NCBI GenBank assembly: GCA_964385285.1
Contig: CAYLOJ010000001.1
Span: 88,537 to 152,536 of the forward strand
Reading direction: 5' to 3'
DNA: 64,000 bases
From: an uncultured Gammaproteobacteria bacterium
Lineage (GTDB): Bacteria > Patescibacteriota > Patescibacteriia > UBA9570
The position numbers were made by a program, and so were the translations under genes. Below, in pieces: positions 4,913-50,913 of the stretch. Each line of letters opens with the position of its first letter. Position 1 is the first letter of the stretch. The notes under the pieces were generated by a model. That model was not told the DNA's origin. It saw nothing but the letters and a program-made list of their open reading frames with translations, and made no database searches.

Positions 4913-4938
4913 ACGGGCCCCATTTGGGGTCCGTTTTT
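4913..4938 (+). terminator. Putative terminator hairpin
   Basis: ACGGGCCCC-attt-GGGGTCCGT is a 9-bp stem with one mismatch, followed by TTTTT. It sits between the sulfotransferase and the codA-like gene. Confidence 0.35.
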
Positions 4939-11951: not shown

Positions 11952-12017
11952 CTACTGTTGTCTGAAAAAATCTTCCCACTAGCAACACTCCTGTTCGCTA
12001 GCACGGAGGATCCTACT

Positions 12018-12185
12018 ATGGATCACGACAGAGCCACGCGCATACCCGTTACACCACACACTGCCTCCACCACCACGGACGATCCTGATCACCCTGCCGC
12101 CATGAGCCTGCCACCGGGCAAGCGCAGCGCACAGGTGCCGGAACGGGCCTGTGGAGAGGTCGCCCTCCCGGTTTGGGAGTGGTAG
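12018..12185 (+). CDS. Small ORF (55 aa) inside GC-rich insert, preceded by a strong Shine-Dalgarno motif
   Basis: GGAGGA at 12005-12010, 7 nt before the ATG at 12018. Product MDHDRATRIPVTPHTASTTTDDPDHPAAMSLPPGKRSAQVPERACGEVALPVWEW has no recognisable family. The ORF track extends it 5' to 11958, but no Shine-Dalgarno motif lies there. Confidence 0.2.
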   Translation: MDHDRATRIPVTPHTASTTTDDPDHPAAMSLPPGKRSAQVPERACGEVALPVWEW

Positions 12186-12297
12186 CGGATTCGTAGTCGG
12201 AAGGGCAGGGCGGTGGTCTCAACCCCACTGCCCGCCCACACCCATCCCGCCGTTCAAACGGTATTTTTTATTTACCTGGTTTTCGTGTATACTGGCA

Positions 12298-12303
12298 ATA
12301 ATT
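12298..12303 (+). promoter_or_regulatory. Possible -10 box (TATACT) upstream of argH
   Basis: TATACT lies 26 nt before the argH ATG. No clean -35 at 17-bp spacing, so this is weak. Confidence 0.2.
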
Positions 12304-12329
12304 TGAATTATTAAGTAAGTGCACTCTGT

Positions 12330-13670: not shown

Positions 13671-14612
13671 ATGGGTATAGTATTGCCAATGTCTACTGCT
13701 GTTACATTCCTCGGCAAGCGTTTTAAAAATCCGATCGTGCTAGCATCTGGCATTCTTGGTGTCACTGCTGCTTCCCTGAAACGCTGTGTCGATTTAGGTG
13801 CGGGCGGAGTGACGGTTAAATCGCTATCACTACAACCTCGTACTGGGCATGTGAATCCCACCATGGCCGGGCATGATTATTTTTTTATCAACGCCGTCGG
13901 ATTATCTAATCCCGGAATTGAGGAAGGGATTAAAGAATTAAAGAAATTCAAAACAATTTGTTCAGCACCACTCATTGGGAGTGTCTTTGCCGGCACCGTT
14001 CAAGAATTTGCGGATGTGACGAAACGGATTGTCACTGCACCGATTGATATTCTCGAAGTCGATATCTCTTGTCCAAATGTCGGAGACGAATTTGGTTCAC
14101 CCTTCGCCTATAGTGTAGATGCTGCCGTTGCCATTACGAAAGCGGTGAAGCGACAAGCCAAGCGCGTCCCCATCAGTGTAAAACTCTCACCCAATGCCTG
14201 GAATATTGGAGAAATTGCTGCCGCTTGTGAAGCGGCCGGTGCTGATGCCATTACTGCTATCAATACTGCCTCCGGAATGACCATTGATGCCACCTTCCAA
14301 GCCCCATTTTTGAGCAATAAGGTCGGTGGAATGTCTGGCCCAGCTCTCAAGCCCATTGCCTTAAAAGCGGTCTGGGATGTCCATTCTAGGCTCAAAAAAG
14401 CTCCAATCATTGCCACTGGTGGCGTGACCTCCGGCGAAGATGCTATTGAGATGATTCTAGCCGGCGGAACGTTGGTAGGTGTCGGTTCTGCAGCTTTCTG
14501 GCGTGGCGCTGAAGTGTTTGGCACAATTGTGAAGGAGATGGAGCAGTATATGAAAGCCAACAACATCAAAGAGATCAAAAGCTTGATTGGTAAAGCTCAT
14601 AAAGCCAAGTAG
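13671..14612 (+). CDS. pyrD: Dihydroorotate dehydrogenase catalytic subunit (class 1B)
   Basis: NPIVLASGILGVT...GAGGVTVKSLSL and the catalytic Cys in DISCPNV. Start overlaps the argH stop (TAAATG). Confidence 0.9.
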   Translation: MGIVLPMSTAVTFLGKRFKNPIVLASGILGVTAASLKRCVDLGAGGVTVKSLSLQPRTGHVNPTMAGHDYFFINAVGLSNPGIEEGIKELKKFKTICSAPLIGSVFAGTVQEFADVTKRIVTAPIDILEVDISCPNVGDEFGSPFAYSVDAAVAITKAVKRQAKRVPISVKLSPNAWNIGEIAAACEAAGADAITAINTASGMTIDATFQAPFLSNKVGGMSGPALKPIALKAVWDVHSRLKKAPIIATGGVTSGEDAIEMILAGGTLVGVGSAAFWRGAEVFGTIVKEMEQYMKANNIKEIKSLIGKAHKAK

Positions 14613-14614
14613 AT

Positions 14615-15418
14615 ATGAAACCCCGAGTTGCTGTACTAAAAAAAGTCACGAACGAAGCCAAGGATGTCAAAGGGTTTACCTTTGAGTTTGCGAACCTAAA
14701 CTCTCAGCCTGGTCAATTTGTCATGTTATGGATTCCAGGGGTGGATCAGAAACCGTTTTCCATCGCTGCCGATGATGGCAAGAGTTTTACGACCGTCGTC
14801 TTTAAACTGAAAAATTTTACCGAGCATCTCTTTAAGCTGAAACCAGGGGATAAGGTCGGTGTCACTGGACCATTTGGCAACCCCTACCATTGGAAACCCA
14901 AAAGCCATGTGATTGCGATCGGTGGTGGGTATGGGGCTGCGCCGTTAGCCTATCTCATTAATCGAGCCAAAGCCGATAACTGCAGTTATGAGCTATTGGT
15001 AGGAGCGCGCAATAAAGCCTTATTGCTTTATACAAATCATTTCCCGAAACATACTTATTTATCGACGAATGATGGATCGGCTGGGCACAAAGGGTTTATC
15101 ACAGAAGTGTTAGCTGAGCGTTTAGAACGACTGTCAAAAACCGAACGGAAAAATACGGTTGTCTACATGTGTGGTCCGGAGCCGATGGAATATGCTGCTG
15201 CTTTAGTCTGCAAACAATACGGGGTAGATAGTCAGATTAGTGTGGAGCGTTATATGAAATGTGGATTCGGGGTCTGCGGACAATGTTGCATCGACGATAC
15301 GGGTGAACGGATGTGCATCGAAGGACCCGTCTTAACTGGTAAGCACGCATTAACTCTTAAAGAATTCGGTCAGTATCATCGTGATAAATCTGGCCAAGCG
15401 CACACCTATGGTTCATAA
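14615..15418 (+). CDS. pyrK: Dihydroorotate dehydrogenase electron-transfer subunit
   Basis: FAD/NAD-binding fold followed by a C-terminal [2Fe-2S] Cys cluster (CGFGVCGQCC). Confidence 0.85.
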   Translation: MKPRVAVLKKVTNEAKDVKGFTFEFANLNSQPGQFVMLWIPGVDQKPFSIAADDGKSFTTVVFKLKNFTEHLFKLKPGDKVGVTGPFGNPYHWKPKSHVIAIGGGYGAAPLAYLINRAKADNCSYELLVGARNKALLLYTNHFPKHTYLSTNDGSAGHKGFITEVLAERLERLSKTERKNTVVYMCGPEPMEYAAALVCKQYGVDSQISVERYMKCGFGVCGQCCIDDTGERMCIEGPVLTGKHALTLKEFGQYHRDKSGQAHTYGS

Positions 15419-16013
15419 GGATCTTATCGACGCACTTTATCGTATTAACGCCGTCAAATTTGGTGAGTTCACTTTGAAGAACGGCATGCAATCGCCAATC
15501 TATATTGATTTGCGTGTAATCATCTCGTATCCAGATGTCTTGAAAATGATTGCCGGAGCCATGACGGAGCTGATTAAACATCACAAATTAGAATATAACG
15601 TTTTAGCTGGAATCCCATATACTGCATTGCCGATTACAACTGCGTTATCCTTGGAGCTAAACCAGCCAATGATCTACGCCCGCAAAGAAGCGAAAGCCTA
15701 TGGCACCAAAAAGAAGATCGAAGGCGCTTATACCGCCGGTCAAATCTGTTTGGTAGTGGATGATCTGATCACCACTGGTGAATCCAAGTTTGAAACGATC
15801 CAACCCTTTGAAGCTGAAGGGTTGATGATTCGTGATATCGTTGTACTGATTGATCGCGAACAAGGGGGCAGCAAAAAATTAGCCGATAACGGCTATCATC
15901 TCTATAGCGTGCTCACGCTAAATGATATCGTAAAACACTTAGTCAGCAACGGAACCATTCCGCCAGATTTAGAAAAAAAGATTCGAGATTTCTTAGCTGC
16001 TAATCATCTGTAA
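15408..16013 (+). CDS. pyrE: Orotate phosphoribosyltransferase
   Basis: PRPP-binding motif LVVDDLITTGESK. Start chosen at MVHKDLIDAL (KFGEFTLK follows). The ORF track starts at 15381. Confidence 0.85.
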   Translation: MVHKDLIDALYRINAVKFGEFTLKNGMQSPIYIDLRVIISYPDVLKMIAGAMTELIKHHKLEYNVLAGIPYTALPITTALSLELNQPMIYARKEAKAYGTKKKIEGAYTAGQICLVVDDLITTGESKFETIQPFEAEGLMIRDIVVLIDREQGGSKKLADNGYHLYSVLTLNDIVKHLVSNGTIPPDLEKKIRDFLAANHL

Positions 16014-16778
16014 TTGTGTATGACCTACGAAGCTAAATTACAAGCGGCAGTGAATCCAGCGGCGCGAGCGTTGCTCAAAACCGTTCTGGAAAAGGAATCC
16101 AATTTATCCGTGGCCGCAGACGTGACTACTTGTAATGAATTGATCACATTGATCCAGCAAACCGGGGATCAGATCGCTCTGCTCAAAACCCATATTGATG
16201 TATTGAGTGATTTCACTCCAGATTTAATCCCGACTTTGCTGGATCTAAAAAAACAATATAATTTTGTGATTTTTGAAGATCGGAAGTTTGCTGATATCGG
16301 CAACACGGTAAAACTGCAATACAGTGGTGGTGTCTATAAAATGGCTGACTGGGCAGATATTATTAATGCCCATGTGGTGCCAGGCCCAGGTATTATTGAA
16401 GGTTTATGGTCCATCGCTAAAGATAAAGGCGCTGGTTTGTTGCTCTTAGCGGAAATGAGTTCTGCTGGAAATTTGGCTAAAGGGGATTACACCAAAACCG
16501 CTGTACAGTGGGCTGAACAATACAGTGAATTTGTCATGGGTTTTATTGGCATGAAATCGCTCAGTAATAATCCACGTTTCATCACTATGACTCCAGGTGT
16601 GAACTTAGCTGATACCGGTGACGGCATGAAGCAGCAATACGTTACTCCTGAACAGGCAGTTCAAGGTGGTTCTGATATCATCATTGTCGGTCGCGGCATC
16701 TATGGTGCCAGTAACCCTGCTGAGGCCGCCAAACAGTACCGTGAAGCGGGTTGGAAAGCATACGCAACATTGCGATAA
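16014..16778 (+). CDS. pyrF: Orotidine-5'-phosphate decarboxylase
   Basis: FEDRKFADIGNTV, including the catalytic Lys, and the DxKxxD-type active site. Confidence 0.85.
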   Translation: MCMTYEAKLQAAVNPAARALLKTVLEKESNLSVAADVTTCNELITLIQQTGDQIALLKTHIDVLSDFTPDLIPTLLDLKKQYNFVIFEDRKFADIGNTVKLQYSGGVYKMADWADIINAHVVPGPGIIEGLWSIAKDKGAGLLLLAEMSSAGNLAKGDYTKTAVQWAEQYSEFVMGFIGMKSLSNNPRFITMTPGVNLADTGDGMKQQYVTPEQAVQGGSDIIIVGRGIYGASNPAEAAKQYREAGWKAYATLR

Positions 16779-19939: not shown

Positions 19940-19961
19940 GCCCGGCGTCAGCCGGGTTTTT
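19940..19961 (+). terminator. Rho-independent terminator of fbp
   Basis: CCCGGC-gtca-GCCGGG followed by TTTTTT. Confidence 0.6.
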
Positions 19962-19987
19962 TGTCGATCACGGTATTGACAGCTGGC

Positions 19988-20395
19988 ATGAAAACATTTA
20001 TACAGTGTGCGCTTCCCACAAGCAAGGAGTGCCGGAAGAAGCTACTACTGATAGAAGACGAACCGCTGGTCGTCCGCGGTCTGAAGCGCTCACTCGAACG
20101 GGCTGGGTACGGTGTCCTCGTGGCAATGTCCCTGGCTGAAGCAAGAGAGCAGATTCAAGACCCCGACATCCGCTGGGTGTTGTGTGACACAAACCTCCCG
20201 GACGGCTCAGGGAATGAGCTGCACCATGAGTGGACTGTCACTGGACGGCTCAACAGCGAGACCCAGTTCATCGCCATGAGCGGTGACTGGATCTCCAATC
20301 ACAAAGCCGCGGCCTACTACCGGAGCACAGCCGTGCTCATGGTGGAAAAGCCGTTCCGCGACTTTAGAACGGAGGTGCTCAACAAGCTGAGCTAA
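19988..20395 (+). CDS. Stand-alone response-regulator receiver (CheY-like) domain protein, GC-rich
   Basis: REC domain with KKLLLIEDEP, the phospho-acceptor Asp in VLCDTNLPDGSG, and the conserved Lys in VEKPF. About 58% GC against ~45% in the flanks. The start is uncertain: the ORF track starts at 19961, and an AAGGAG lies inside the ORF. Confidence 0.55.
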   Translation: MKTFIQCALPTSKECRKKLLLIEDEPLVVRGLKRSLERAGYGVLVAMSLAEAREQIQDPDIRWVLCDTNLPDGSGNELHHEWTVTGRLNSETQFIAMSGDWISNHKAAAYYRSTAVLMVEKPFRDFRTEVLNKLS

Positions 20396-22233: not shown

Positions 22234-23298
22234 CTACTTTGAGATAATTAATTTAATTTGCTGAGGTAATTTTGGCGTACGCTCCATCCAGAACGGAACG
22301 AATCGCACCGAGACGCTGGACACTTGTTCAAAATCGGCCAGATACTCTTTCACCTGCTGTTCAGTTTTGCCGGTTAGATCAGCCACATCCACAAAATCTA
22401 GCGATTGTTCAACGGCGGTAGTCTCGGCTTCGCCAGAGATGATCCAATCTGTCCCATCGGTGGTGAGAGTGTAGGTGATCGCACCATCGGTGACAGGCTC
22501 ATCTGCTGCTTGCAACTGCGTGCGAATAGTTTCAGGATCAACCGGTAGGTAAGTGGCCACCCCTTTGGTCTGTACAGTAATGGCTTCAACCAAACTACCC
22601 ACTTGGCCTGCAACAGTTTGCTCGGTAATCTCCATTTGCCAATTGGCTGAATCAAAATCCGCAGTTTGGACTGTTTGGTTTACAGTGGCTTTTGCTGCCG
22701 TCTCTGCTTCGATTCGTGCCGCTTCTTCTGCTGCAGTAACGAGATCATCTGTTAAAGTCACTTTCTTAATCAACCCGCCAGTCATTGCCTCTGTACTTTC
22801 ACCATAGATCTTATCTTTTAAACTATCGGCTAACGCCACAATTTCGAATTTACTAGCGGCAATATTTCCCACAGCACCTGCTTGATCTGCATAGACAGGC
22901 ACATCAATTGTGCCGCCTGCAGGAACAGTTACCGTTTCATCCGTACGGAAGAGCACGCCCCCATCAGATAGTAAACGCGTAGTGCGGACTAATGGTTGAT
23001 CGCCACTATACGTATTCACCAGTGTTATTGTACCTCTGGCTACTGCATCTTCTGAACTATCCGCTGCATAATCTGTAAATGTATAGGTGGTATCAATCGA
23101 CACAACGACCGGTTCAACACCCAAGTCGGCTGCGCTGTACTGAAAATTAGTAGTCGCTGGAAGGTCATGTAAAGTAATGGCGATAGTAGTTTTACTGAAA
23201 GCCACATAAAGGACTGCGCCAACTAATACTACGACGATCGCGATGAAGGCGATTAAGAGGGGTGAAAAATAACGCTGTAGGCGCTGGGTTTGATTCAT
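22234..23298 (-). CDS. Membrane-anchored hypothetical protein
   Basis: Single N-terminal transmembrane helix (LLIAFIAIVVVLVGAVLYVAF), then an extracytoplasmic Thr/Ala/Val-rich domain. Tightly packed between dnaE and thrS. Confidence 0.4.
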   Translation of the reverse strand: MNQTQRLQRYFSPLLIAFIAIVVVLVGAVLYVAFSKTTIAITLHDLPATTNFQYSAADLGVEPVVVSIDTTYTFTDYAADSSEDAVARGTITLVNTYSGDQPLVRTTRLLSDGGVLFRTDETVTVPAGGTIDVPVYADQAGAVGNIAASKFEIVALADSLKDKIYGESTEAMTGGLIKKVTLTDDLVTAAEEAARIEAETAAKATVNQTVQTADFDSANWQMEITEQTVAGQVGSLVEAITVQTKGVATYLPVDPETIRTQLQAADEPVTDGAITYTLTTDGTDWIISGEAETTAVEQSLDFVDVADLTGKTEQQVKEYLADFEQVSSVSVRFVPFWMERTPKLPQQIKLIISK

Positions 23299-30238: not shown

Positions 30239-30934
30239 TTGTATTGTATGGTGCAGAATCAGAATCTTTCACTACAAGCTACAACCCGTAGCATTACCGG
30301 CAAGAAGGTCGCTTCGTTACGCAAAGAAGGGATCACTCCGGGCGTCGTTTATGGACACGGCATCAACACTACTAGTATTCAAATGAACCAGGCCGCATTA
30401 GACAAAATCTATGCGCAAGCTGGCCGCGGTAGTTTGATCGATTTGAGTATTGATGAAAAAGCAGCAGTGCCAGTGGTAATCGAATCTATCTCCTACAACC
30501 GTCTGACCGACGTCGTTGAACACGTGGATTTCCATGCCGTACGCATGGATCAAGAAATCACATCACAGGTAGCCTTAATCTTTACAGGTGAGTCTGCTGC
30601 TGTGAAATCACTTGGCGGAACCTTTGTAAAAAACAAAGATCACATTACTATAAAATGTTTACCTAGTAAGTTGATCAAAGAATTGACCATTGATATTAGT
30701 GTCTTGGCAACTTTTGAAGACAATATTAAAATCCGTAGTTTGAAATTGCCAGACGGTATTCAGATTATGGATCAAGCGGATGACATCATCGCGCTCGTAG
30801 CACAACCACGCAGTGATGCTGAACTTGCTGCCTTAAATGAATCCGTCAATGAAGATGTCACCAAAGTTCAGGGCGTCATCAAAGAAACTCCTGCTGCTGA
30901 AGAAAAGGAGAAAGACAAGGCCAAAAAAGCATAG
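30239..30934 (+). CDS. rplY: 50S ribosomal protein L25 / general stress protein Ctc
   Basis: LQATTRSITGKKVASLRKEGITPGVVYGHG is the L25 N-terminal domain. A C-terminal Ctc-type extension with an acidic/K-rich tail follows. Confidence 0.8.
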   Translation: MYCMVQNQNLSLQATTRSITGKKVASLRKEGITPGVVYGHGINTTSIQMNQAALDKIYAQAGRGSLIDLSIDEKAAVPVVIESISYNRLTDVVEHVDFHAVRMDQEITSQVALIFTGESAAVKSLGGTFVKNKDHITIKCLPSKLIKELTIDISVLATFEDNIKIRSLKLPDGIQIMDQADDIIALVAQPRSDAELAALNESVNEDVTKVQGVIKETPAAEEKEKDKAKKA

Positions 30935-30938
30935 TACT

Positions 30939-32066
30939 ATGGACCAGTCTTGGTCAGAAAAAGTGAAAGACGCTTGGTGGGCGGTACGAAGAAATCGTGC
31001 CGCTCGCATTGTAGCTGTTGTCATTGTTTCGTTAGTAGCTGTTTTGAGTATCTTATATGGCGTTTTAGCATATTACGGTCGCTTGCCCGGGAAGCAAAAC
31101 TCATCTGATACATTGACGGACACCTCTAACACCAATACGAATACAACCGTAGATCTCACCGGTACAACCACGCGTCAACTCGACGGTGCGACTGTCGATG
31201 CGGCCGTCAGTAATCGTTTTCCGGTGGCAGTGATGATTGAGAATCTAGTGGATATTCGACCACAAGCCGGTTTAAGCTCTGCAGGGGTTGTTTATGAAGC
31301 CTTAGCAGAAGGCGGCATTACCAGGTTTATGGCTGTCTATGCGACCACGGATTCCATAGAAAATATTGGGCCAGTACGCAGTGCTCGGCATTACTTTGTC
31401 GATTGGGCAGAGGAGTATCATGGAGTTTACGCCTATGTTGGTGGTAGCCCACAGGCGCTTGGTGTAACAGGTTCATCCAATTACATCACGGACTTAAATC
31501 AATTCTATAACTCAGAGTATTTCTATCGGTCGACAGATCGAGAGGCTCCACATAATTTGTTTTCTTCCTCCGAATTATTAGATTACGCATTACGAGACCT
31601 TGAATTAGATGCCAAAGCAGGGGATTACACACCCTATACCTTCAAGACTCCGGCTACTGAGGCTGAACGCCCCGGAGCAGTTGCACCAATCACCATCAAT
31701 TACTCAAACAGTGATTACCAAGTGGAATGGCGATACGATGAAGGCACCAATCAATATTTGCGTTGGAATGGCGGAGAGGAACATACGGATGCAAATACAG
31801 GCAAACAATTAGCCGCCAGTAACGTGCTGATTCAACGCGTCGATACGACAGTACTAGAAGCAGCTACTGGGCGTTTAGATATGGAAACGATTGGCAGTGG
31901 CGAGGCAGTATTATTTCAAGATGGAGCGGCAACCATAGGTAGTTGGAAAAAATCGGATCGTGGTGAGCGAACCTTATTTTACGATGCCACTGGTGTAGAA
32001 TTAACCTTTAACCCTGGGCCGACTTGGATTGAGGTTGTGCCAGTGGAAACAGCAGTTACCTACTAA
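30939..32066 (+). CDS. Membrane-anchored extracytoplasmic protein, paralog A (possibly DUF3048/YerB-like)
   Basis: N-terminal transmembrane anchor. Block FPVAVMIENLVDIRPQAGLSSAGVVYEALAEGGITRFMAVY. Start moved to MDQSW; the ORF track starts at 30837, overlapping rplY. Confidence 0.4.
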   Translation: MDQSWSEKVKDAWWAVRRNRAARIVAVVIVSLVAVLSILYGVLAYYGRLPGKQNSSDTLTDTSNTNTNTTVDLTGTTTRQLDGATVDAAVSNRFPVAVMIENLVDIRPQAGLSSAGVVYEALAEGGITRFMAVYATTDSIENIGPVRSARHYFVDWAEEYHGVYAYVGGSPQALGVTGSSNYITDLNQFYNSEYFYRSTDREAPHNLFSSSELLDYALRDLELDAKAGDYTPYTFKTPATEAERPGAVAPITINYSNSDYQVEWRYDEGTNQYLRWNGGEEHTDANTGKQLAASNVLIQRVDTTVLEAATGRLDMETIGSGEAVLFQDGAATIGSWKKSDRGERTLFYDATGVELTFNPGPTWIEVVPVETAVTY

Positions 32067-32073
32067 AACACAT

Positions 32074-33189
32074 ATGACACTCAATACAAAACTAGGAATT
32101 GTCGCAGGTAGTTTAAGTTTAGCGGCGGCAACGATTTGGGGAGGAATTCTGTGGGCCAGTACTCAGAACGACATTGCACTACAATCACCCAAAGTGATTG
32201 CACAAGTAACTCCAGTTGCGAATACGAATAGTGCTGTAGATCTCGTGACAGATTTAGTCGAACGACGCATCGATGGAACACTTGTTCAGTCTGATCAAGC
32301 GAATCTTTGGCCAATTGCAGTCATGATTGAAAATGCTGCCTTCGGTGGAGTGCGCCCGCAATCCGGACTGAGTTTTGCGCAAGTCGTATACGAATTGCCC
32401 GTAGAAGGGGGTATTACACGATTTTTAGCGGTGTTCGCAGGGGATATGCCAGAAAAAATTGGGCCAGTGCGTAGTGCCAGACCTACTTATCTTGAATTTA
32501 CCGGTGAATTAGACGCCCTCTATGCGCATGCAGGTGGTAGTCCTGAAGCTCTAGCAGCAGTAGATGGACTTGCAGTGCGCGATCTATCTGCTCTGGCAGC
32601 CGATTCTAAATATTTCTTTCGTGATAATACCTTAGTGGCTCCGCACAATCTCTTTACAACACAAGAACTCTTAACCACAGCGCGACGCGACAAGGGTTTG
32701 GCCGAACAATCACCAGCGTATGATCCTTGGCTATTTAAAGATGATGAACCCACGACTGAGACTGTGTCTACGGATCCATTGATCTTCGATTTTGGTTCTG
32801 GCCCCCTCTATCAGATCGTCTATACCTATAACCGCACAACCAATAGCTATGATCGTAAAGATGGTGGCGATGATCATCTCGATGCAGTGACCGGAAAAGT
32901 AATCTCTCCCAAGGTCGTTATTGCCCAGATGATTCCAGCAGGCACACCCACGGGAACTGAAGGACGTATTAATTATGACGTCACGGGTAGTGGATTAGCC
33001 TATATTGCTCAAGATGGTAAAGTGATTGAAGGAATTTGGTCCAAGACGGATCGACAAAGCAGAACCGTATTTCGTGATAGTGAAGGCAATCGAATTGAAT
33101 TTGATCGCGGCTCAATCTGGATTAGTTTAATTCCAGCAACAGGCTCCGTTACGTTGCCAACTGCATTGCCAAATACCACTACGAATTGA
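32074..33189 (+). CDS. Membrane-anchored extracytoplasmic protein, paralog B (possibly DUF3048/YerB-like)
   Basis: Same architecture as paralog A. Conserved block WPIAVMIENAAFGGVRPQSGLSFAQVVYELPVEGGITRFLAVF. Start set at MTLNTK. Confidence 0.4.
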   Translation: MTLNTKLGIVAGSLSLAAATIWGGILWASTQNDIALQSPKVIAQVTPVANTNSAVDLVTDLVERRIDGTLVQSDQANLWPIAVMIENAAFGGVRPQSGLSFAQVVYELPVEGGITRFLAVFAGDMPEKIGPVRSARPTYLEFTGELDALYAHAGGSPEALAAVDGLAVRDLSALAADSKYFFRDNTLVAPHNLFTTQELLTTARRDKGLAEQSPAYDPWLFKDDEPTTETVSTDPLIFDFGSGPLYQIVYTYNRTTNSYDRKDGGDDHLDAVTGKVISPKVVIAQMIPAGTPTGTEGRINYDVTGSGLAYIAQDGKVIEGIWSKTDRQSRTVFRDSEGNRIEFDRGSIWISLIPATGSVTLPTALPNTTTN

Positions 33190-44373: not shown

Positions 44374-45606
44374 TTGAGTTCTATGAAAAAAATCGCCCTA
44401 TTGTTCGCTGTGTCCGTGCTTTTCCCAGCTACGTTAGTGCGTGCGGCCGACAAGGCGGACTTAGCTGACATCCAGGCTAAATTAAAAGAGAAGCAGCAGG
44501 CCTATGATGACCTCCAATCCAAAATTGATGTCTACGAAGAAAACTTAAAGTCAAAGCAGCAAGAAAAAACTACCCTGAACAGTCAGGTGGAGGTATTGGA
44601 TCAAAATATTGATCTCACCAAATCAGAGATGGAGCAGACGGAAATTGAAATTGATAGTTTGGGCTTAGAGATCGACACGCTGCAGATTACTCTCAATGAT
44701 ACACAAGACACGATTGAATCGCATCAAGGTCATATGGAAGACCTCATTCGTGATCTGTATGATTACGACCAGCGCACCTATTTAGAGATTGCCTTATCCC
44801 ATTCGACATTATCAGATTTTTCCACTCAGGTAGAGTACACAGAAAGTGTGAATGATCAGTTCCGCAGTGCTGTCGATAGTTTAAAGCAACTAAAAAAACA
44901 ATTAAAAGAAGATAAAGAAGACCTTTCTGCAAAGCAAGATGCCGAGGAACAGAAAAAAGTGGAATTGACGACTCGCCAAGAGACGTTACAAGGCGAAATT
45001 GATTACAAAACTGGTTTGCTCGCCACAGTCGAAAACGATGAGAGTAAATTTCAACAGCTGATCAAAGATATTCAGCAAGAACAGGAAGGTTACAATGCTG
45101 AGATCTCACAATTGGAAAAATCGGCTCGTGCTACGTATGATGAAATCAATGCTGGAAAAACGGACGACAGTGGCAATGTGACCGATACCTTACCCAGTGA
45201 ATTTGATCCTATCTGGCCTGCGAGTTGTATTGTGACGACCACCTTTCATGATCCTAACTACATTTTTCGTGCTTCCTTTGAGCACGACGCCATTGATTGC
45301 GCCGCTCCACAAGGCACACCACTAAAAGCTGCTGATAGTGGGGTAGTGAGTGTGACGCGTTTTGATGGAACTTCCAATTACGCCTACGTCTTGATTGTAC
45401 ATGCTGATAATTTTTCAACTGTGTATGGTCATGTGAGCGCCATCTATGTCGAGCCTGGTGAAGTGGTACAAAAAGGTCAGATTATTGGAGCAATGGGTGG
45501 CTTGCCCGGCACCCCTGGCTCTGGTGCCTACACAACCGGACCACATGTACATTTTGGTGTACGCTTGAATGGCATTCCTGTGGATCCGTTGTTGTACTTA
45601 CCATAA
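44374..45606 (+). CDS. M23-family peptidase with N-terminal coiled coil (EnvC-like)
   Basis: Signal peptide, a long coiled coil, and a C-terminal LytM domain carrying HVHFGVRLNG. Confidence 0.75.
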   Translation: MSSMKKIALLFAVSVLFPATLVRAADKADLADIQAKLKEKQQAYDDLQSKIDVYEENLKSKQQEKTTLNSQVEVLDQNIDLTKSEMEQTEIEIDSLGLEIDTLQITLNDTQDTIESHQGHMEDLIRDLYDYDQRTYLEIALSHSTLSDFSTQVEYTESVNDQFRSAVDSLKQLKKQLKEDKEDLSAKQDAEEQKKVELTTRQETLQGEIDYKTGLLATVENDESKFQQLIKDIQQEQEGYNAEISQLEKSARATYDEINAGKTDDSGNVTDTLPSEFDPIWPASCIVTTTFHDPNYIFRASFEHDAIDCAAPQGTPLKAADSGVVSVTRFDGTSNYAYVLIVHADNFSTVYGHVSAIYVEPGEVVQKGQIIGAMGGLPGTPGSGAYTTGPHVHFGVRLNGIPVDPLLYLP

Positions 45607-45627
45607 ACAGATCCATATAAAGCGAAA

Positions 45628-45693
45628 GACCCTGAAAGACTGTCGTTGAATGGCACCAAGTTACGGTGCAATTCACACTAGTCTTTCAGGGTC
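45628..45693. repeat. 14-bp perfect inverted repeat with 38-nt spacer at the island boundary (possible terminator for the minus-strand gene)
   Basis: GACCCTGAAAGACT (45628-45641) pairs with AGTCTTTCAGGGTC (45680-45693). On the minus strand it is followed by TTTCGCTTTATAT. Confidence 0.4.
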
Positions 45694-45711
45694 ATCGCAT
45701 TCATTGCAGCA

Positions 45712-47169
45712 TCACCACCAGCGGAGCGTGACGTACGGTCCGACTCGCCCCACCAGCTGGAAGCCGACGGGAGTCTGGAACGTTGCCTCCACCTCACCGG
45801 CTTTGGTGTACAGCGTCGTGGGCAGAGAGGCGCCGTTGGTGTAGCGCATCTCCAAAGCTCCGAAGACGCCGACGTTCCAGCCGTAGCGCTCGCCCGTGTG
45901 TTGACCAACACCAGCACGCAGGCCAGGACCATACCAAGGCATCATCTGCACCTGGGTGAATTGATTGTGGTTTGAGCCACAAAGCATATTCAGGTCCGAG
46001 CCCTCTTCACAGTTGAACACAGTCGGACCGAAGCCCGCCATGATCAGCGGATTGATCCGGTACTCCCACGACTTGCCGAGATCGTGGTGGAGCACCGGTC
46101 CGAAGCCCACGTAAACATCTGGCACGATGGTGCCTGCCGCCTTGTCCTCGTTGATCAAGGCCCCGGCGAGAGCTACGTAGATCTGCTGGCTGTACTGCAG
46201 CTGGAGGAGATCGAACTGGAGACCGGAGCTTGCCCAACCCAGCCGGTTGCCGTTGGCACTGATCGTGACGACCGGGATTGGCAAAGTCACCGCACCGAAC
46301 GGGTGCACCTGCAGCGCGGGAGCGGCGGAGGCAACAGGAGCCGTGGCAGTGAACAGCACGTTGTCCGGCAGTTTGGGCGCGTACGTGCCCTTGCCGTCGA
46401 ATCCCACCACTTCATAGAATTGGCAGCTTCCGCTGACCAACTCGTAGGTCGTTTTGGGAGTGCTGACTCCACGCTGATTGGGATCGCTCACGCTCTTGGT
46501 CACCGTCTTGTAGACGGCGACGAACCAGCGACCAGCCCCGTACAGGGTGTCACTGGTCGCCTTGCCCGAGATCCCGAGCGGGCTGACGGCAGCATCCAAT
46601 TTCTTGGGGCACTGCTTCGCCGTCGCTTCAGCGAGGTCGCGGATGCGAACGTACCCAGGCTGCACCTGTGGAATCTGGATATCCAAATCCAAGAAGTACA
46701 GCTTCTTGTCTGGCGCCCAGCTGATTACAGGCTTGTAAACCTGGTCAACCTGATGCTCGACGACCTGGCGGGGCTGGCAACTGTCGGGTTCGAGAACCCA
46801 GCTGTTACGATCCACCCGATGGTAGACCCCTACATAGTAGGTGTCACCGGGGGTGAGGACGTAGTCATCGCTGGAGTACCGGACGTCCGCGAGTGACCGC
46901 TTCCAGGGATGGAAGAGGTTGCCGTTGATGTCGACCGGGTCTGGAGCAGCCGGACAACTCCGGTTGATGTAGACCGCGACCAGGTAGTTCGCCGGAATGT
47001 AGTCCGCCTTGTTGATCCTCAAGTCGGGCTCCGAGAACCGGAGGTTGATCTCCTGGTTCGTTCGGTCGATAGCGGTCGCATCCTGGGCCCGAGCCACCGG
47101 CATGGTGACGAGAAGGGTAAGGAGGCAAGCCGCCAGCACGAGCAGGGAGCGGGTGAGAGAGAGCAGCAC
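45712..47169 (-). CDS. GC-rich secreted protein, possible outer-membrane beta-barrel
   Basis: GTG start preceded by GAGGTG. Signal peptide (LLVLAACLLTLLVTMPVARA). The C-terminal half is Gly/aromatic-rich with alternating hydrophobics and ends ...TLRWW. About 65% GC. Confidence 0.5.
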   Translation of the reverse strand: MLLSLTRSLLVLAACLLTLLVTMPVARAQDATAIDRTNQEINLRFSEPDLRINKADYIPANYLVAVYINRSCPAAPDPVDINGNLFHPWKRSLADVRYSSDDYVLTPGDTYYVGVYHRVDRNSWVLEPDSCQPRQVVEHQVDQVYKPVISWAPDKKLYFLDLDIQIPQVQPGYVRIRDLAEATAKQCPKKLDAAVSPLGISGKATSDTLYGAGRWFVAVYKTVTKSVSDPNQRGVSTPKTTYELVSGSCQFYEVVGFDGKGTYAPKLPDNVLFTATAPVASAAPALQVHPFGAVTLPIPVVTISANGNRLGWASSGLQFDLLQLQYSQQIYVALAGALINEDKAAGTIVPDVYVGFGPVLHHDLGKSWEYRINPLIMAGFGPTVFNCEEGSDLNMLCGSNHNQFTQVQMMPWYGPGLRAGVGQHTGERYGWNVGVFGALEMRYTNGASLPTTLYTKAGEVEATFQTPVGFQLVGRVGPYVTLRWW

Positions 47170-47374
47170 GAAGCACCTCGTTTCGCTTGGGTTATTGCTG
47201 ATGGAACACTTTCAATGAACGCAATGGACGAACTATTCGCCCAAACGAACTGATCATGAATGGAATCATGCTCAACTCATTTGGGTGGGCCGGCAGGGGA
47301 ATGCAGAACAAGTCATACACGCCCCCACCGACCGATTCCTCCTCAGGAACCCTTAGATACAGACACCCAGTCGG

Positions 47375-49417
47375 TTAGGGACGACGGCGGCGCAACGAGA
47401 GCAGCAGAATCGCGACCCAACTCCCGCTCGAGGCGAACCCCAAACGGTTGTTGCAGCCACAGCCAGTGCCGTAGAGAACAACACCCTTGCTGCTCCCCGT
47501 GTCATCCATTCCGGAATCCACGATTCCAGTGTCGTCGGTGTCACCCGAATCGCCAGAGTCACCGCTGTCGCCGGAATCTCCCGTGTCGGACTGATGGGCA
47601 TCACTCCCATCACAATCCTGGTCGATCCCGTCGTCCGGAACCTCTTCGGCACCGGGGTTGATGGTGGGGTCGGCGTCGTCACAGTCTCCTGCATACTCGC
47701 TGTAGCCGTCACCGTCAGAGTCGTCACACTCCGTGGAATCGTCTGCCACGCCCGAGCAATCCTGGTCCACACCGTCGCACGTTTCCGTAGCTCCGGGATG
47801 GATGGACGCATCCGTGTCGTTGCAGTCATCCGTGGTGTAGCTGTCGCCATCCACGTCATCCTCCAAGCAGTCGAGGATGCCGTTGCCGTCCACGTCATCT
47901 ACCCAATCTTCATCGGTGTAGCTGTCGCAGTCGTCGTCGATGCCGTTGCAGGCTTCGATGATCGCAGGGGACTGGGCCGAGTTTGCGTCGTTGCAGTCGC
48001 CCGCATCTTCGCTGTAGCCGTCGGAGTCGTCGTCGTAGCAGCTCGTGCCCTCGTCGATCGTGCCGTCACAGTCCTGGTCCACACCGTCGCACACTTCCGT
48101 AGCGCCGGGGAAGATGTCAGACCGCGTGTCGTCACAATCGGAGCTCAGGTCGTAGCCATCTGCGTCGATGTCGTCGTCGTCCGTGAGACCATCACAGTCC
48201 TGGTCCACACCGTCGTAGGCGATTTCGCTGGCGCCGGGGTTGGTACCGGCGGCGTTGTCGTCGCAGTCCGTGGTGTAGTCGTACCCGTCACCGTCCACGT
48301 CGGTCAGGTCGCTGCCGGAGCAGTCCTGGTCGATCCCGTCGTAGGCCGTTTCCGGCGCGCCCGGGTAGGTGGAAGGAGCACTATCATCACACTCCTCACA
48401 GCCCATGTAACCGTCACCGTCCACGTCGTCCTCGTCGCCGAGGCCGTCGCAGTTGGAGTCCACACCGTCGCAGCTCTCGCTGGCGCCGGGGAGGATGGTC
48501 GCATCGGTATCGTCACAGTCGCCCTCGTCCTCCTGGTAGCCGTCACCGTCGTCGTCGTAGGCGATCGTGCCCTCATCGATGATGCCGTCACAGTCGTTGT
48601 CCACCCCGTCGTAGTTCTCGTAGGCGCCGGGGTAGGCGTCCGCGTTGGCGTCGTTGCAGTCGTCACAGGCCAGGTAGGTGTCACCGTCGGCGTCGACCTC
48701 GTCGCCAAGGCCGTCGCAGTTGGAGTCCACACCGTCGCAGCTCTCGCTGGCGCCGGGGAGGATGGTCGCATCGGTATCGTCACAGTCGCCCTCGTCCTCC
48801 TGGTAGCCGTCACCGTCGTCGTCGTAGGCGATCGTGCCCTCATCGATGATGCCGTCACAGTCGTTGTCCACCCCGTCGTAGTTCTCGTAGGCGCCGGGGT
48901 AGGCGTCCGCGTTGGCGTCGTTGCAGTCGGTCCCACCCACGTCAGTGGAGTCGTAGCCGTCACCGTCGACATCGGTCAGGTCGCTGCCGGAGCAGTCCTG
49001 GTCGATCCCGTCGTAGGCGATCTCGACTTCGGCGAAACCATCGGCATGACCGTTGCAGTCATTGTCGATGCCGTCACCGCAGACCTCCGTCGCCGCAGGG
49101 TTAACCGCAGCATCGGTGTCGTTGCAATCGTCGGACCCGCTGTATCCATCACCGTCGTTCTCATCGGTGGTGCACAGCGCTGCAGGCTCCCAATCTTCAT
49201 CGTAGAGCCCGTCGCAGTCTTCGTCCTCGGCGTCACCACACTGCTCGGTGGCACCGGGGTAGATGGTGGGGTCGTAGTCGTTGCAGTCGACGGAGTCGTC
49301 GAAACCGTCGAGATCCACATCCGCCGCCATGGCGAAGTGGGGGAAGAGGGTGGCGATCATGACCAGCAGGGCGCAAAGCGCTCGACAGGTCGACTTCTGG
49401 TTGAGATTGAACCGCAT
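47375..49417 (-). CDS. Cys/Asp-rich secreted repeat protein with MopE-type metal-binding repeats and a MYXO-CTERM-like tail
   Basis: GGAGG Shine-Dalgarno motif 5 nt before the ATG. Signal peptide. About ten repeats of DGDGY..DCDDxDAxxxPGAxExCDGxDxDCDG. C-terminus is DSGDSGDSGDSG...GCGCNNRLGFASSGSWVAILLLSLRRRRP. About 68-70% GC. Confidence 0.6.
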   Translation of the reverse strand: MRFNLNQKSTCRALCALLVMIATLFPHFAMAADVDLDGFDDSVDCNDYDPTIYPGATEQCGDAEDEDCDGLYDEDWEPAALCTTDENDGDGYSGSDDCNDTDAAVNPAATEVCGDGIDNDCNGHADGFAEVEIAYDGIDQDCSGSDLTDVDGDGYDSTDVGGTDCNDANADAYPGAYENYDGVDNDCDGIIDEGTIAYDDDGDGYQEDEGDCDDTDATILPGASESCDGVDSNCDGLGDEVDADGDTYLACDDCNDANADAYPGAYENYDGVDNDCDGIIDEGTIAYDDDGDGYQEDEGDCDDTDATILPGASESCDGVDSNCDGLGDEDDVDGDGYMGCEECDDSAPSTYPGAPETAYDGIDQDCSGSDLTDVDGDGYDYTTDCDDNAAGTNPGASEIAYDGVDQDCDGLTDDDDIDADGYDLSSDCDDTRSDIFPGATEVCDGVDQDCDGTIDEGTSCYDDDSDGYSEDAGDCNDANSAQSPAIIEACNGIDDDCDSYTDEDWVDDVDGNGILDCLEDDVDGDSYTTDDCNDTDASIHPGATETCDGVDQDCSGVADDSTECDDSDGDGYSEYAGDCDDADPTINPGAEEVPDDGIDQDCDGSDAHQSDTGDSGDSGDSGDSGDTDDTGIVDSGMDDTGSSKGVVLYGTGCGCNNRLGFASSGSWVAILLLSLRRRRP
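48440..48930. repeat. Near-perfect tandem duplication (~267-bp period, ~221 bp identical per copy) inside the repeat-protein gene
   Basis: The string ggccgtcgcagttggagtccacaccgtcgcagctctcgctggcgccggggaggatggtcgc...gcgttggcgtcgttgcagt occurs at about 48442 and again at about 48708. It encodes the duplicated 89-aa block DCNDANADAY...CDGLGDE. Confidence 0.7.
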
Positions 49418-49677
49418 GAAACCTCCGCGGTGTTAGCGTGAACCGAATTCACTAGACGAATCGGATCTGTAGTTATCTGTATCTTTTTTTGGGAAAGAAC
49501 ATTCAAACACAGCCCGCACCAATGATCTAAACTAATCACTCGTGTGAACTGTATTTTTGCCGTTAGACGGCTCGGCACAATACTAGATTTTAACCAAAAA
49601 GTCAAGCCATCATTGAGCAGGACTATAGACCTGCGGATGGCACGTAATTACAAAGGGGATGGAATAGAAAGAATATA

Positions 49678-49709
49678 ATGCGTCGCACAATCATTCTTAT
49701 ACGACGCAT
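49678..49709. terminator. Inverted repeat / putative terminator downstream of ftsQ
   Basis: ATGCGTCG, a 16-nt loop, then CGACGCAT. A T-rich run follows on the minus strand. Confidence 0.3.
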
Positions 49710-49761: not shown

Positions 49762-50913
49762 CTATCGATAATACACTCTGTCAGTGAAACGCAGATCAAT
49801 ATACTCTAATCCAGTAACATCCTCGATGTCTGAACTTAATATCTGCTTGAGATGATCTAATTGCTGTTGTAAATCTAGACTCGTATCAAAATAAATTGCG
49901 ACACCTTGTTGTGTGATCACACTAATATCTCTGGTCACTGTCGGATAATCACACTTCACATCTACAAACTCGGCTTCATATTGGATAAATGCATCGGATC
50001 CAGAGGTGTTCTTATCCCCTTCGGCATGTTTAATTTCTTCCAAGAGGTCTAAACTTTGATCCACGGTAATTTCATTGTTGCGCAGTTGATCTAAGACAGC
50101 TCGTTTTTGTGATTTTGAAGATTCGGATTTTGAATCGGCGATTTCATCTGCAAAGATTTTTTCTGTCACATACTGTTTTTCCTGACAGGTCACCGGCATA
50201 ATTGCATACTCTGCGATATCCAAACCACTTTGTGCGGTAAAGCGATCATGTAGACCGCTGATAAAATCTACTACTGTCGGTCGCACGATATTTTCTCCCA
50301 CTGTCACTTTGCGCTTCTTATTCTCTTCGCGAATGTGTGGAAAATGCGGATCGGCTTCCCCTTCAGTTGTGATTTGAGTAATTGTTCCTTGAATATCTAA
50401 ATAGTAATACTGCTTGTTGTTGATATAGACATATCCCGGAACTCGTTCCGAGACGGTCACATTAACTGTTTTCGGCCAATCTGCACTAACGACAACCGAA
50501 CGTAACTGAATTTTTTGACTGAGGGTTGCAGAGATATCGGCTGCTAACTGCGTTTCATCTAAGACAGGTAAAAAGCGTTGTTTAAAGATTAGCCAACGTC
50601 TACGTTGTAAGGCGGAACGCGTCGCCTCTGCAATATCGTCAACGGTTAGATACTGTTCTCCACCAATGGTAATCCATTGCGCAGACAAAAACTGCCAGCG
50701 ACTAAACACTAGCCACAGTAATGCAATCAACAGAACTAGCGAACCCAAAATAGCCAAGCCATCACGTTTAATGCGGGCTGGTGTTGGGTCTTCGTGCTTA
50801 AAATACGGGTTGTGAAAACGACCTGCTGGCATGAGGTTGAGTATAGACGAAATCAATAAAATCAGCCATACTAAGACAGTTCTATGCGCCCATTTGATCA
50901 CTGGTGGCAGCAA
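49762..50913 (-). CDS. ftsQ: Cell division protein FtsQ/DivIB
   Basis: Single transmembrane helix, then a POTRA-like block (ITIGGEQYLTVDDIAEATRSAL) and a beta-domain. The true start may be the internal Met at 50832. Confidence 0.6.
   Translation of the reverse strand: MLPPVIKWAHRTVLVWLILLISSILNLMPAGRFHNPYFKHEDPTPARIKRDGLAILGSLVLLIALLWLVFSRWQFLSAQWITIGGEQYLTVDDIAEATRSALQRRRWLIFKQRFLPVLDETQLAADISATLSQKIQLRSVVVSADWPKTVNVTVSERVPGYVYINNKQYYYLDIQGTITQITTEGEADPHFPHIREENKKRKVTVGENIVRPTVVDFISGLHDRFTAQSGLDIAEYAIMPVTCQEKQYVTEKIFADEIADSKSESSKSQKRAVLDQLRNNEITVDQSLDLLEEIKHAEGDKNTSGSDAFIQYEAEFVDVKCDYPTVTRDISVITQQGVAIYFDTSLDLQQQLDHLKQILSSDIEDVTGLEYIDLRFTDRVYYR

Follow-up and report, generated by a model that had tools for sequence, protein, structure and literature searches.

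A clade-conserved GC-rich gene cassette, probably encoding cell-surface proteins, in a Kerfeldbacteria-like lineage of the Candidate Phyla Radiation

Introduction

Must a gene block that departs from its genome in GC content, codon usage and translation signals be a recent acquisition? The question is raised by a locus in a 64-kb stretch of DNA (hereafter the window, to which all coordinates refer unless a related locus is named) from a bacterium of the Candidate Phyla Radiation (CPR, or Patescibacteria). Here, two minus-strand open reading frames (ORFs) fill a GC-rich stretch between an M23 peptidase gene and an ftsQ-like gene. The upstream ORF (gene 1) encodes a protein made of MopE repeats and the downstream one (gene 2, or B) a predicted β-barrel protein; we refer to the pair as the cassette. 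A first-pass annotation of the window, made by reading the letters, had described the pair as a recent foreign insertion from a Myxococcota-like donor. The analysis presented here argues against a recent insertion and for a cell-surface cassette that is native to a Kerfeldbacteria-like CPR lineage and clade-wide in its distribution; we assign to this reading a probability of roughly 0.7.

Results

Anatomy and composition of the cassette

The cassette and its borders are the following.

44374-45606, plus strand: coiled-coil and M23 peptidase gene of host composition, conserved right-hand border of the slot
45712-49417, minus strand: the cassette, two ORFs filling the GC-rich stretch
45712-47169, minus strand: gene 2 (B), 485 aa, downstream gene of the cassette, with a GTG start
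47375-49417, minus strand: gene 1, MopE-repeat protein of 680 aa, upstream gene of the cassette
49762-50913, minus strand: ftsQ-like POTRA gene of host composition, conserved left-hand border of the slot

The slot extends from the stop codon of the M23 gene (45606, plus strand) to that of the ftsQ-like gene (49762, minus strand), and lies between convergent genes as the first-pass annotation had stated. In 300-nt windows the GC content is about 0.42-0.47 in the flanks and 0.56-0.66 across approximately 45700-49450, beyond which it drops back; apart from the cassette, no 1-kb bin of the window exceeds 0.51. The abrupt rise noticed earlier is real, but the 65-70% GC given for the island is somewhat high, since the genes measure 0.609 (B) and 0.631 (MopE gene). 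The excess sits mainly at third codon positions. The GC content of these positions (GC3) is 0.774 in B and 0.796 in the MopE gene, as compared to 0.428 ± 0.032 (range 0.35-0.50) in 39 host genes, about 11 standard deviations apart. The amino-acid composition of the products was rejected as the source of the high GC content, because the shift concerns mainly GC3 and the GARP/FYMINK fractions barely change. Judging from its GluRS, which is 74% identical to that of Candidatus Kerfeldbacteria metagenome-assembled genomes (MAGs), the host is a Kerfeldbacteria-like CPR/Patescibacteria bacterium.

In the cassette both C- and G-ending codons are favoured, and TTA, CTA, ATA, ACA and TTT are absent. Codon usage of this kind might be the result of very high expression, that is of translational selection, as in S-layer and other abundant envelope proteins. 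The strong preference for C-ending codons in the NNY boxes (TTC 100%, ATC about 90%, TAC about 90%) would agree with this explanation, and the strong Shine-Dalgarno (SD) motifs and apparent own promoter described below would suit abundant envelope proteins. However, G-ending codons are equally favoured (CAG 88-100%, AAG 76-100%, GAG about 70%) and A-ending four-fold codons are nearly absent, which indicates a general shift towards GC rather than a matching of tRNAs. In addition, the ribosomal protein L25 gene of the window has an ordinary GC3 of 0.42, the first and second codon positions of the cassette are modestly raised as well, and its spacers, with a GC content of 0.40-0.52, lie at the upper end of the intergenic range of the window (0.29-0.56). 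Translational selection is therefore an improbable explanation of the composition.

Pfam scans of the window ORFs of at least 150 aa revealed no integrase, transposase, sortase or CPBP protease domain, in agreement with the earlier observation that no integrase, transposase or sorting enzyme accompanies the two genes. At the edges of the cassette no flanking or att-like repeats, transposon-like terminal repeats or target duplications were found, and no tRNA. Among the marks by which a recent island is recognised, the atypical composition is thus present, whereas mobility genes, repeats and a tRNA are lacking; absence from close relatives, a further mark, is considered in the following section.

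The same slot in related genomes

Related loci were reached through GluRS anchors and through homologues of B; their sources are MAGs deposited at NCBI, one JGI metagenome and five separate SRA runs. In the slot order M23 → ← B ← MopE ← ftsQ, a cassette of this kind was found in L004, L005, L006 and L081-L086, with the qualification that L004 contains the MopE gene without gene B and that L006 is cut by the contig end. Altogether, of 11 related loci readable past the M23 gene, 10 carry the cassette. Its GC3 is 0.73-0.86 in every locus, as compared to 0.28-0.49 in the flanks. The recurrence of cassette, slot and high GC in these relatives speaks against the recent foreign insertion that had been proposed. 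More distant CPR loci showed no GC-rich block and no cluster of MopE motifs, but a few isolated single motif matches.

The locus that lacks the cassette, L089 (a 211-kb contig with an M23 identity of 68%), has an empty site at 9213-9280 of its own numbering, where the M23 and ftsQ stop codons are 68 bp apart. In a neighbour-joining tree of the M23 proteins L089 is nested among the cassette-bearing lineages, so that loss is the simplest reading of the empty site. On this reading, the ancestor shared by the sampled clade would already have had the cassette.

A sudden change of composition at gene boundaries might also arise from an assembly or binning chimera, in which a GC-rich fragment was mis-joined into a low-GC CPR contig, and several related contigs break exactly at these boundaries. 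However, both junctions are present in independent assemblies, namely the 158-kb NCBI contig that contains the window and carries host genes together with gene B, L004 (114 kb) and L081 (43 kb), and the M23-side junction was recovered in seven more assemblies from different projects and assemblers. Furthermore, promoter, terminator and intergenic element are coherently organised around the genes. The chimera, which the first-pass annotation had kept in view as an outcome that would overturn its proposal, can be given almost no credence. Three independent Kerfeldbacteria-like contigs, L001 (9143 bp), L090 (8999 bp) and L091 (2305 bp), run out no more than about 40 nt from the M23 stop codon, at the point where a cassette would start, as expected of a locus that varies within populations. 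This suggests that assemblies routinely break at the cassette locus, or that composition-based binning loses the cassette.

Divergence and origin of the cassette genes

The two cassette genes differ in how they diverge. Between the window and its nearest relative, L085, protein identity is 89% for GluRS, 89% for M23, 75% for MopE (C-terminal part) and 30% for B. B identity is 24-45% in all pairs, while M23 identity varies from 51 to 89% (Spearman -0.05, 36 pairs); MopE identity, on the other hand, tracks that of M23 (rho 0.56, p 0.009). The clade spans GluRS identities down to 64%. The B alleles would therefore be either extremely fast-evolving or old and exchanged by recombination.

At four-fold degenerate sites, the identity observed between the window and L085 is 31-40% in the flanks (25-26% by chance), 35% in B (34% by chance) and 48% in MopE (37% by chance). 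Four-fold sites are thus close to saturation even between these two loci. Since the synonymous sites of the cassette have turned over and yet remain at about 80% G+C, the composition appears to be at or near a locus-specific equilibrium and to be actively maintained. An ancient island in the course of amelioration, the alternative that had been offered to a recent one, does not account for a GC3 held near 0.8 despite saturated synonymous sites.

An exhaustive phmmer search of 1.84 billion representative proteins returned eight true homologues of B, all from the same clade and not from Myxococcota as had been expected. Seven of the eight are encoded beside the same M23 gene and the eighth is on a 1.7-kb contig; counting the window, the family members with readable context (window B and seven homologues) lie in the M23-ftsQ slot in 8/8 cases. 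The exhaustive search was needed, because a word-indexed search with B returned the query only and, with the family profile, P0140 as well. P0139, which appeared in the phmmer list, was discarded as a low-complexity false positive. Direct BLASTP of the window B against that of L005 was not significant, and the homology of these two was set transitively and by the family alignment. The closest relatives of the MopE-repeat protein are likewise its syntenic orthologues (up to 75%).

These results allow us to weigh the explanation given by the first-pass annotation, namely that a GC-rich, Myxococcota-like organism recently donated both genes by horizontal transfer and that they entered the genome between M23 and ftsQ. 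In its favour, the cassette resembles an organism of about 60-65% GC in composition, codon usage and SD motifs; elsewhere the MYXO-CTERM signal, to which the tail of gene 1 is related, has been described in Myxococcota and Bradymonadales alone; a diderm donor would fit well with an outer-membrane-type barrel; and some high-scoring MopE matches are labelled Myxococcota. The latter, however, come from MAGs and are 41-44% identical to the window protein, hence no closer than the distant clade orthologue of L005 (44-49%). Moreover, the cassette recurs in this slot in relatives with a flank identity of 51-89%, the divergence of MopE follows that of the genome, cassettes are saturated relative to each other at synonymous sites, and among the representative proteins searched no homologue of B was detected outside the slot, 7/8 contexts being readable. 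Together with the lack of integrase, att-like repeat and tRNA, this makes a recent island very improbable.

The MopE-repeat protein and its C-terminal tail

Two features were recognised within gene 1.

47375-47470, minus strand: MYXO-CTERM-type tail GTGCGCNNRLGFASSGSWVAILLLSLRRRRP, with Cys motif, hydrophobic helix, Arg cluster and stop codon
48390-48923, minus strand: tandem duplication in the MopE gene, two copies of 267 bp, 96-98% identical

The gene 1 product consists, in this order, of a Sec-type signal peptide (about aa 1-31), 12 Cys/Asp-rich MopE repeats, a low-complexity acidic Ser/Gly/Asp/Thr linker and a C-terminal tail of sorting or anchor type. Its N-terminus reads MRFNL...FAMA/ADVD and its C-terminus ...GTGCGCNN...WVAILLLSLRRRRP, with GCGC before WVAILLLSLRRRRP. 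The earlier assignment to the MopE-repeat proteins was borne out by PF11617 (Cu-binding_MopE), which matched in 12 repeats with an E-value of 1.8e-120 (393 bits vs. a cutoff of 27). This is the only Pfam match of the protein, and a full-length NCBIfam scan was empty; in the PDB its only relative is MopE (2vov, E 2e-5). The 267-bp duplication is best read as a recent expansion of the repeat array.

The tripartite design of MYXO-CTERM proteins (Cys motif, hydrophobic helix, Arg-rich end), preceded by a signal peptide, is present in the gene 1 product, and the G-C motif and the Arg cluster are invariant across nine clade tails. When isolated tails were scanned, TIGR03901 matched in 7/9 at E≤10 (best 2.5e-6), and the orthologous tail of L004 reached 24.2 bits vs. 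a cutoff of 20. These matches indicate that the clade carries the MYXO-CTERM family and that the window copy would be a divergent member of it. The tail reported by the first-pass annotation is therefore upheld as to its tripartite structure and its relatives, but the window tail itself has no match to the hidden Markov models of NCBIfam. MYXO-CTERM has been described in Myxococcota and Bradymonadales, with 6-43 substrates per genome, and singleton matches elsewhere have been judged false; the window contains one substrate of this type. The orthologous series of CPR tails would extend the range of MYXO-CTERM, or at least represent a convergent Cys/transmembrane/Arg anchor.

In the more distant relatives L004 (12787-14028) and L005 (14872-17136), the MopE proteins carry at the N-terminus an additional domain of about 165 aa, free of repeats and missing from the window protein. 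A GC-rich MopE gene was also observed outside the clade, in the Candidatus Uhrbacteria MAG PCYM01000003.1 (L087, 1-4132). Here, a 1024-aa MopE-repeat gene has a GC3 of 0.91, as compared to 0.43-0.55 in its neighbours, and a partial MopE-like gene upstream of it is a GC outlier too (GC3 0.82). These genes have neither a MYXO-CTERM-type tail nor a B-like partner. GC-rich MopE genes may thus be a wider CPR phenomenon. Literature searches on MopE and Patescibacteria, and on GC-rich islands in CPR bacteria, returned nothing relevant.

Gene B encodes a predicted β-barrel protein of a new family

One part of gene B was delimited by its predicted fold.

45715-46257, minus strand: barrel-encoding part of B (about aa 305-485), predicted to be of outer-membrane type

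The B protein starts with a signal peptide (about aa 1-28), followed by two β-rich modules (about aa 40-265), each with a conserved pair of Cys residues. The AlphaFold model comprises a signal helix, the two β-rich modules, a low-confidence or disordered linker and eight long antiparallel strands (residues 309-484). The latter are predicted to be of transmembrane length and to form a closed barrel, in keeping with the earlier description of the product as a signal-peptide protein resembling an outer-membrane β-barrel. Hydrophobic and polar faces alternate along the strands, and all ten family sequences carry a W or F at the terminus or at most two residues from the end, W484 being nearly invariant. 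Foldseek matched the model to OpcA, NspA, Ail and OmpA. In a table of small outer-membrane barrels set against B, whose figures carry no label, the entries are NspA 16.9, PagL 15.7, OmpA 14.8, OprF-N 14.3 and OmpW 14.3.

B has no Pfam or NCBIfam match, and its family profile found no sequence match in the PDB. Taken with the search results given above, B appears to be a previously undescribed, tiny, clade-restricted and hypervariable family of β-barrel proteins. A diversity-generating retroelement was rejected as the origin of this hypervariation, because no reverse transcriptase domain was found in the window ORFs and variation spans the whole protein. No BamA-type protein was found in the window.

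Translation signals and non-coding elements

The signals and elements around the two genes are listed below, from left to right.

45619-45703, no strand assigned: long hairpin between the convergent M23 and B genes, ΔG -50 kcal/mol, z -7.0
47174-47179, minus strand: SD motif GAGGTG of gene B, 4 nt before GTG, anti-SD duplex -7.2 kcal/mol
47236-47352, minus strand: structured intergenic element with three hairpins, within the 205-nt MopE-B spacer
49422-49426, minus strand: SD motif GGAGG of the MopE gene, 4 nt before ATG, anti-SD duplex -10.1 kcal/mol
49577-49605, minus strand: candidate sigma-70-like promoter TTGACT-17-TATTGT, found by a consensus scan with 9 of 12 matches, a pattern match only
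49678-49709, minus strand: terminator-like hairpin with T-rich tail, which ends the ftsQ-like gene upstream of the cassette

Both SD motifs reported by the first-pass annotation are in place, with a spacing of 4 nt and not of 5 nt. Its statement that host genes nearly lack such motifs also holds: among the 51 other window ORFs of at least 150 aa, 50 have an anti-SD duplex weaker than -5.5 kcal/mol and one a strong one, a comparison that is approximate because ORF starts were taken mechanically. In the relatives L005 and L081-L084, SD-like motifs precede the cassette genes and none precedes the flanking genes. The sole other strong motif of the window (AGGAGG) stands upstream of a mechanically called TTG start of dnaE (26753). 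In the host genes generally, SD motifs are almost universally absent, TTG starts are frequent, and many genes overlap their neighbours by a few bases.

The promoter candidate precedes the MopE start by about 160 nt, within spacer DNA that is AT-rich like the host. One arm (ATGCGTCGTATAAG) of the terminator-like hairpin of the ftsQ-like gene is retained at the empty site of L089. At the other end of the cassette, the hairpin at 45619-45703 has perfect 14-bp arms (45628-45641 and 45680-45693) and is probably a bidirectional terminator. An Rfam match of this region to mir-7 (26 bits vs. a cutoff of 51.8) was dismissed as spurious, since it reflects only the shape of the hairpin.

The intergenic element between MopE and B folds into one hairpin that contains AGGAGG, one GC-rich stem and one long stem of CCCAAAUGAG...UUUGGG. 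Its region 47268-47371 is 95% identical in DNA to L085 over 104 nt, as compared to about 78% in the flanking coding DNA. The minimum free energy of the element has a z-score of -3.85, 86% of the cells are paired (30-54% in slid controls), and compensatory changes occur at eight pairs across seven loci; L081-L086 contain stretches homologous to the element. A spacer ORF of 43 codons was rejected, because the indels in the alignment are not multiples of three and the covariation is of RNA type. Rfam contains no family for either this element or the terminator hairpin. The spacer element is therefore a candidate new structured RNA, which may act as a cis-regulatory or processing motif and as a recombination anchor.

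The spacer also bears on a third account of the origin of the cassette, that is a single ancient acquisition from a GC-rich diderm, possibly the host of the episymbiont, with composition and signals kept by continual re-homogenisation or replacement from the same pool, such as host DNA that the epibiont takes up. The joint occurrence of diderm-type features (MYXO-CTERM-type tail, barrel with a terminal aromatic residue, SD motifs and GC-rich codons), the decoupling of the B alleles from the genome tree, and the high GC3 of the MopE gene of Uhrbacteria (0.91), which suggests that CPR MopE genes may be imports generally, agree with this account. Conversely, an external reservoir of B was not detected among the representative proteins searched and MopE tracks the genome. 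Moreover, a clade-conserved spacer RNA and gene order are hard to square with repeated import from different hosts, and best matches of the MopE repeats cannot point to a donor, given how short and conserved these repeats are. We consider the account as a whole unlikely, whereas an ancient origin from a GC-rich diderm donor, taken by itself, is possible.

Other features of the window

Some other observations concern the remainder of the window. A second, smaller compositional outlier is a receiver gene (19961-20395, plus strand; GC3 0.70), which encodes a stand-alone response regulator (PF00072, E 4.9e-12) and lies directly after the clean terminator (GC-hairpin and T-run) of the FBPase gene. 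A 378-nt intergenic patch at 11952-12329, between an amidohydrolase (dihydroorotase-like) gene and a lyase gene, has a GC content of 0.56-0.62; it contains a 75-aa ORF without Pfam match, no tRNA and no Rfam family.

An apparently near-complete cluster for de novo pyrimidine synthesis was observed at 4937-16778. It includes an amidohydrolase, carA, carB, pyrB, a second amidohydrolase, a PF00206 lyase of the adenylosuccinate/argininosuccinate type, pyrD, a pyrK-like partner, a pyrE-like gene and pyrF. Nucleotide synthesis is unusual in CPR genomes. At 22234-23298 (minus strand), between dnaE and a thrS-like gene, lies the gene of a 354-aa protein that is weakly Baseplate_J-like (E 1.2e-5), an odd context for a domain of phage-baseplate type, and two tandem paralogous DUF3048 proteins (N- and C-domain) follow the ribosomal protein L25 gene at 30837-33189 (plus strand).

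Discussion

The observations reported above are most simply accommodated by a native cassette, fixed in its slot, whose products would act at the cell surface. We propose that it is transcribed from its own promoter and that the strong hairpin ends the unit against the convergent M23 gene. After export, the MopE-repeat protein would stay attached to the cytoplasmic membrane through its C-terminal helix, its Arg cluster facing the cell interior; should the cell have a myxosortase-like enzyme, the protein may undergo cleavage and receive a lipid anchor at the Cys. The protein may form a rigid, disulfide-rich stalk, and its Asp-rich motifs resembling DxDxDG (e.g., DVDGDGY) may indicate, in our own reading, that this stalk is stabilised by calcium. 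B would be exported as well, and its variable β-modules and barrel might be the specificity end of an adhesion or recognition device; phage or the partner of the episymbiont would then impose diversifying or frequency-dependent selection on B. The barrel may be soluble or wall-embedded or, more speculatively, delivered into the outer membrane of a diderm partner.

According to the same proposal, MopE has co-diverged with the genome, whereas the alleles of B would be either swappable or polymorphic since ancient times. Homology arms for the exchange of B could be provided by the conserved spacer and, at the opposite end, by the 3' part of the M23 gene, the spacer element being the left breakpoint of replacement. 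This element may also control the processing, stability or translation of the B message. The GC bias might be held by gene conversion, or by selection on mRNA or translation. Recombination-associated GC-biased gene conversion in bacteria is a documented hypothesis (PMC4450053), and it fits the cassette because of allele exchange and of conversion among the intragenic repeats. Initiation led by SD motifs may be a corollary, as a GC-rich, structured mRNA may need them in a genome that is otherwise poor in such motifs.

Several points weigh against the reading of the region as a native surface cassette. The function of the cassette is inferred from its architecture and evolutionary pattern. The GC3 gap (about 0.35-0.5) may, in our assessment, be too large for gene conversion alone, and in symbionts with small populations selection should act only weakly on synonymous sites. 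The isolated window tail gave no NCBIfam match at E≤10 and falls below the curated cutoff of MYXO-CTERM, and no myxosortase-type CPBP protein (PF02517 / NF040914) was found among the window ORFs of at least 150 aa, within these 64 kb only. The model of B was obtained from a nine-sequence family alignment (A2), with a mean predicted local distance difference test score of 73. Patescibacteria/CPR bacteria are treated as monoderm (PMC12102498), so that an outer-membrane-type barrel is without an obvious home and a simple surface-complex model is weakened. The presence of the cassette in the common ancestor is deduced from a single protein (M23) in a midpoint-rooted neighbour-joining tree. Finally, repeated replacement of B from an unsampled GC-rich reservoir is possible.

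Among known systems, the nearest functional analogue of the cassette appears to be traAB of Myxococcus xanthus, which mediates outer-membrane exchange and kin recognition (PMC3325183; PMC11980579; PMC6372800). Both are two-gene units. The first product is secreted and carries Cys-rich tandem repeats and a MYXO-CTERM or similar tail; its partner, encoded by the second gene, is likewise a secreted protein of the envelope. One of the two components is strongly polymorphic; in TraAB this component sets the specificity of recognition. The likeness is one of resemblance and not of membership. The cassette has no PA14 domain, TIGR04201 repeats or OmpA peptidoglycan-binding domain, and its repeats belong to PF11617. 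The variable partner is the second gene of the cassette but the first of TraAB, the cassette genes are 205 nt apart with a structured spacer whereas traAB is an overlapping bicistronic operon, and the host of the cassette is presumed to be a monoderm CPR bacterium without a known myxosortase or type II secretion system.

With the MYXO-CTERM/myxosortase systems (TIGR03901/TIGR03382; MrtX, MrtC, MrtP) the gene 1 product shares the Cys residue, transmembrane helix and Arg cluster of a protein with a signal peptide, but its CPR host lies outside the described range and one substrate in 64 kb contrasts with the multiple substrates by which these systems are recognised. MopE of Methylococcus capsulatus has the Cys/Asp-rich motif in common with gene 1 and both proteins are, or would be, surface-associated. 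However, MopE proper consists of one motif and a copper-binding domain, while gene 1 encodes almost nothing but repeats and a membrane-anchor tail; copper binding by the gene 1 product is not implied by PF11617. Unlike the small eight-stranded outer-membrane barrels (NspA, OmpA-N, OmpX/Ail, OmpW, PagL, OpcA), B belongs to no sequence family among them, has a β-rich N-terminal extension of 270 residues with conserved disulfides, and occurs in a lineage that is thought to be without outer membrane and BAM.

The fixed slot with conserved housekeeping flanks, the extreme divergence of alleles decoupled from the genome, the assembly breaks and the likely surface products recall hypervariable cell-surface islands, such as the cell-wall island of Haloquadratum walsbyi (PMC4535781) and a surface-protein gene of a Gracilibacterium of the CPR (PMC6851277). 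The present cassette differs from them in that it is fixed in gene content, uniformly GC-rich with SD motifs, and conserved in composition across a deep clade. Hypervariable surface islands are usually AT-rich or compositionally mixed, with variable gene content.

A bolder version, which we regard as rather doubtful, would make the cassette a contact apparatus in which the secreted B barrel is planted in the outer membrane of a diderm host and the membrane-anchored MopE stalk binds the β-rich modules of B, tethering the two cells. If this were true, contact of a TraAB-like kind could let a CPR cell that is auxotrophic for lipids draw on membrane material of the host, and the diversity of B alleles would encode host or strain specificity. 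The "diderm dialect" of the cassette (GC-rich codons, SD motifs, MYXO-CTERM tail, β-signal) would then be maintained and vertically inherited, resisting amelioration indefinitely.

Leaving this version aside, the native cassette that we favour is a previously undescribed, clade-conserved locus of persistently atypical composition and presumable surface function. As such it would be a counter-example to the rule that atypical GC content, codon usage and translation signals mean recent horizontal transfer. Since the locus breaks assemblies and composition filters would drop the cassette from bins, it is probably under-reported. Whether the composition is held by gene conversion at a hotspot of recombination or by selection on a translation regime that is tuned separately is a question that can now be put to a defined locus. 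A MYXO-CTERM-type tail and a predicted outer-membrane-type barrel in a presumed monoderm CPR bacterium bear on the envelope biology of the group and on the attachment of episymbionts, and B is a candidate determinant of specificity, for host range or for phage susceptibility, in these uncultured bacteria.

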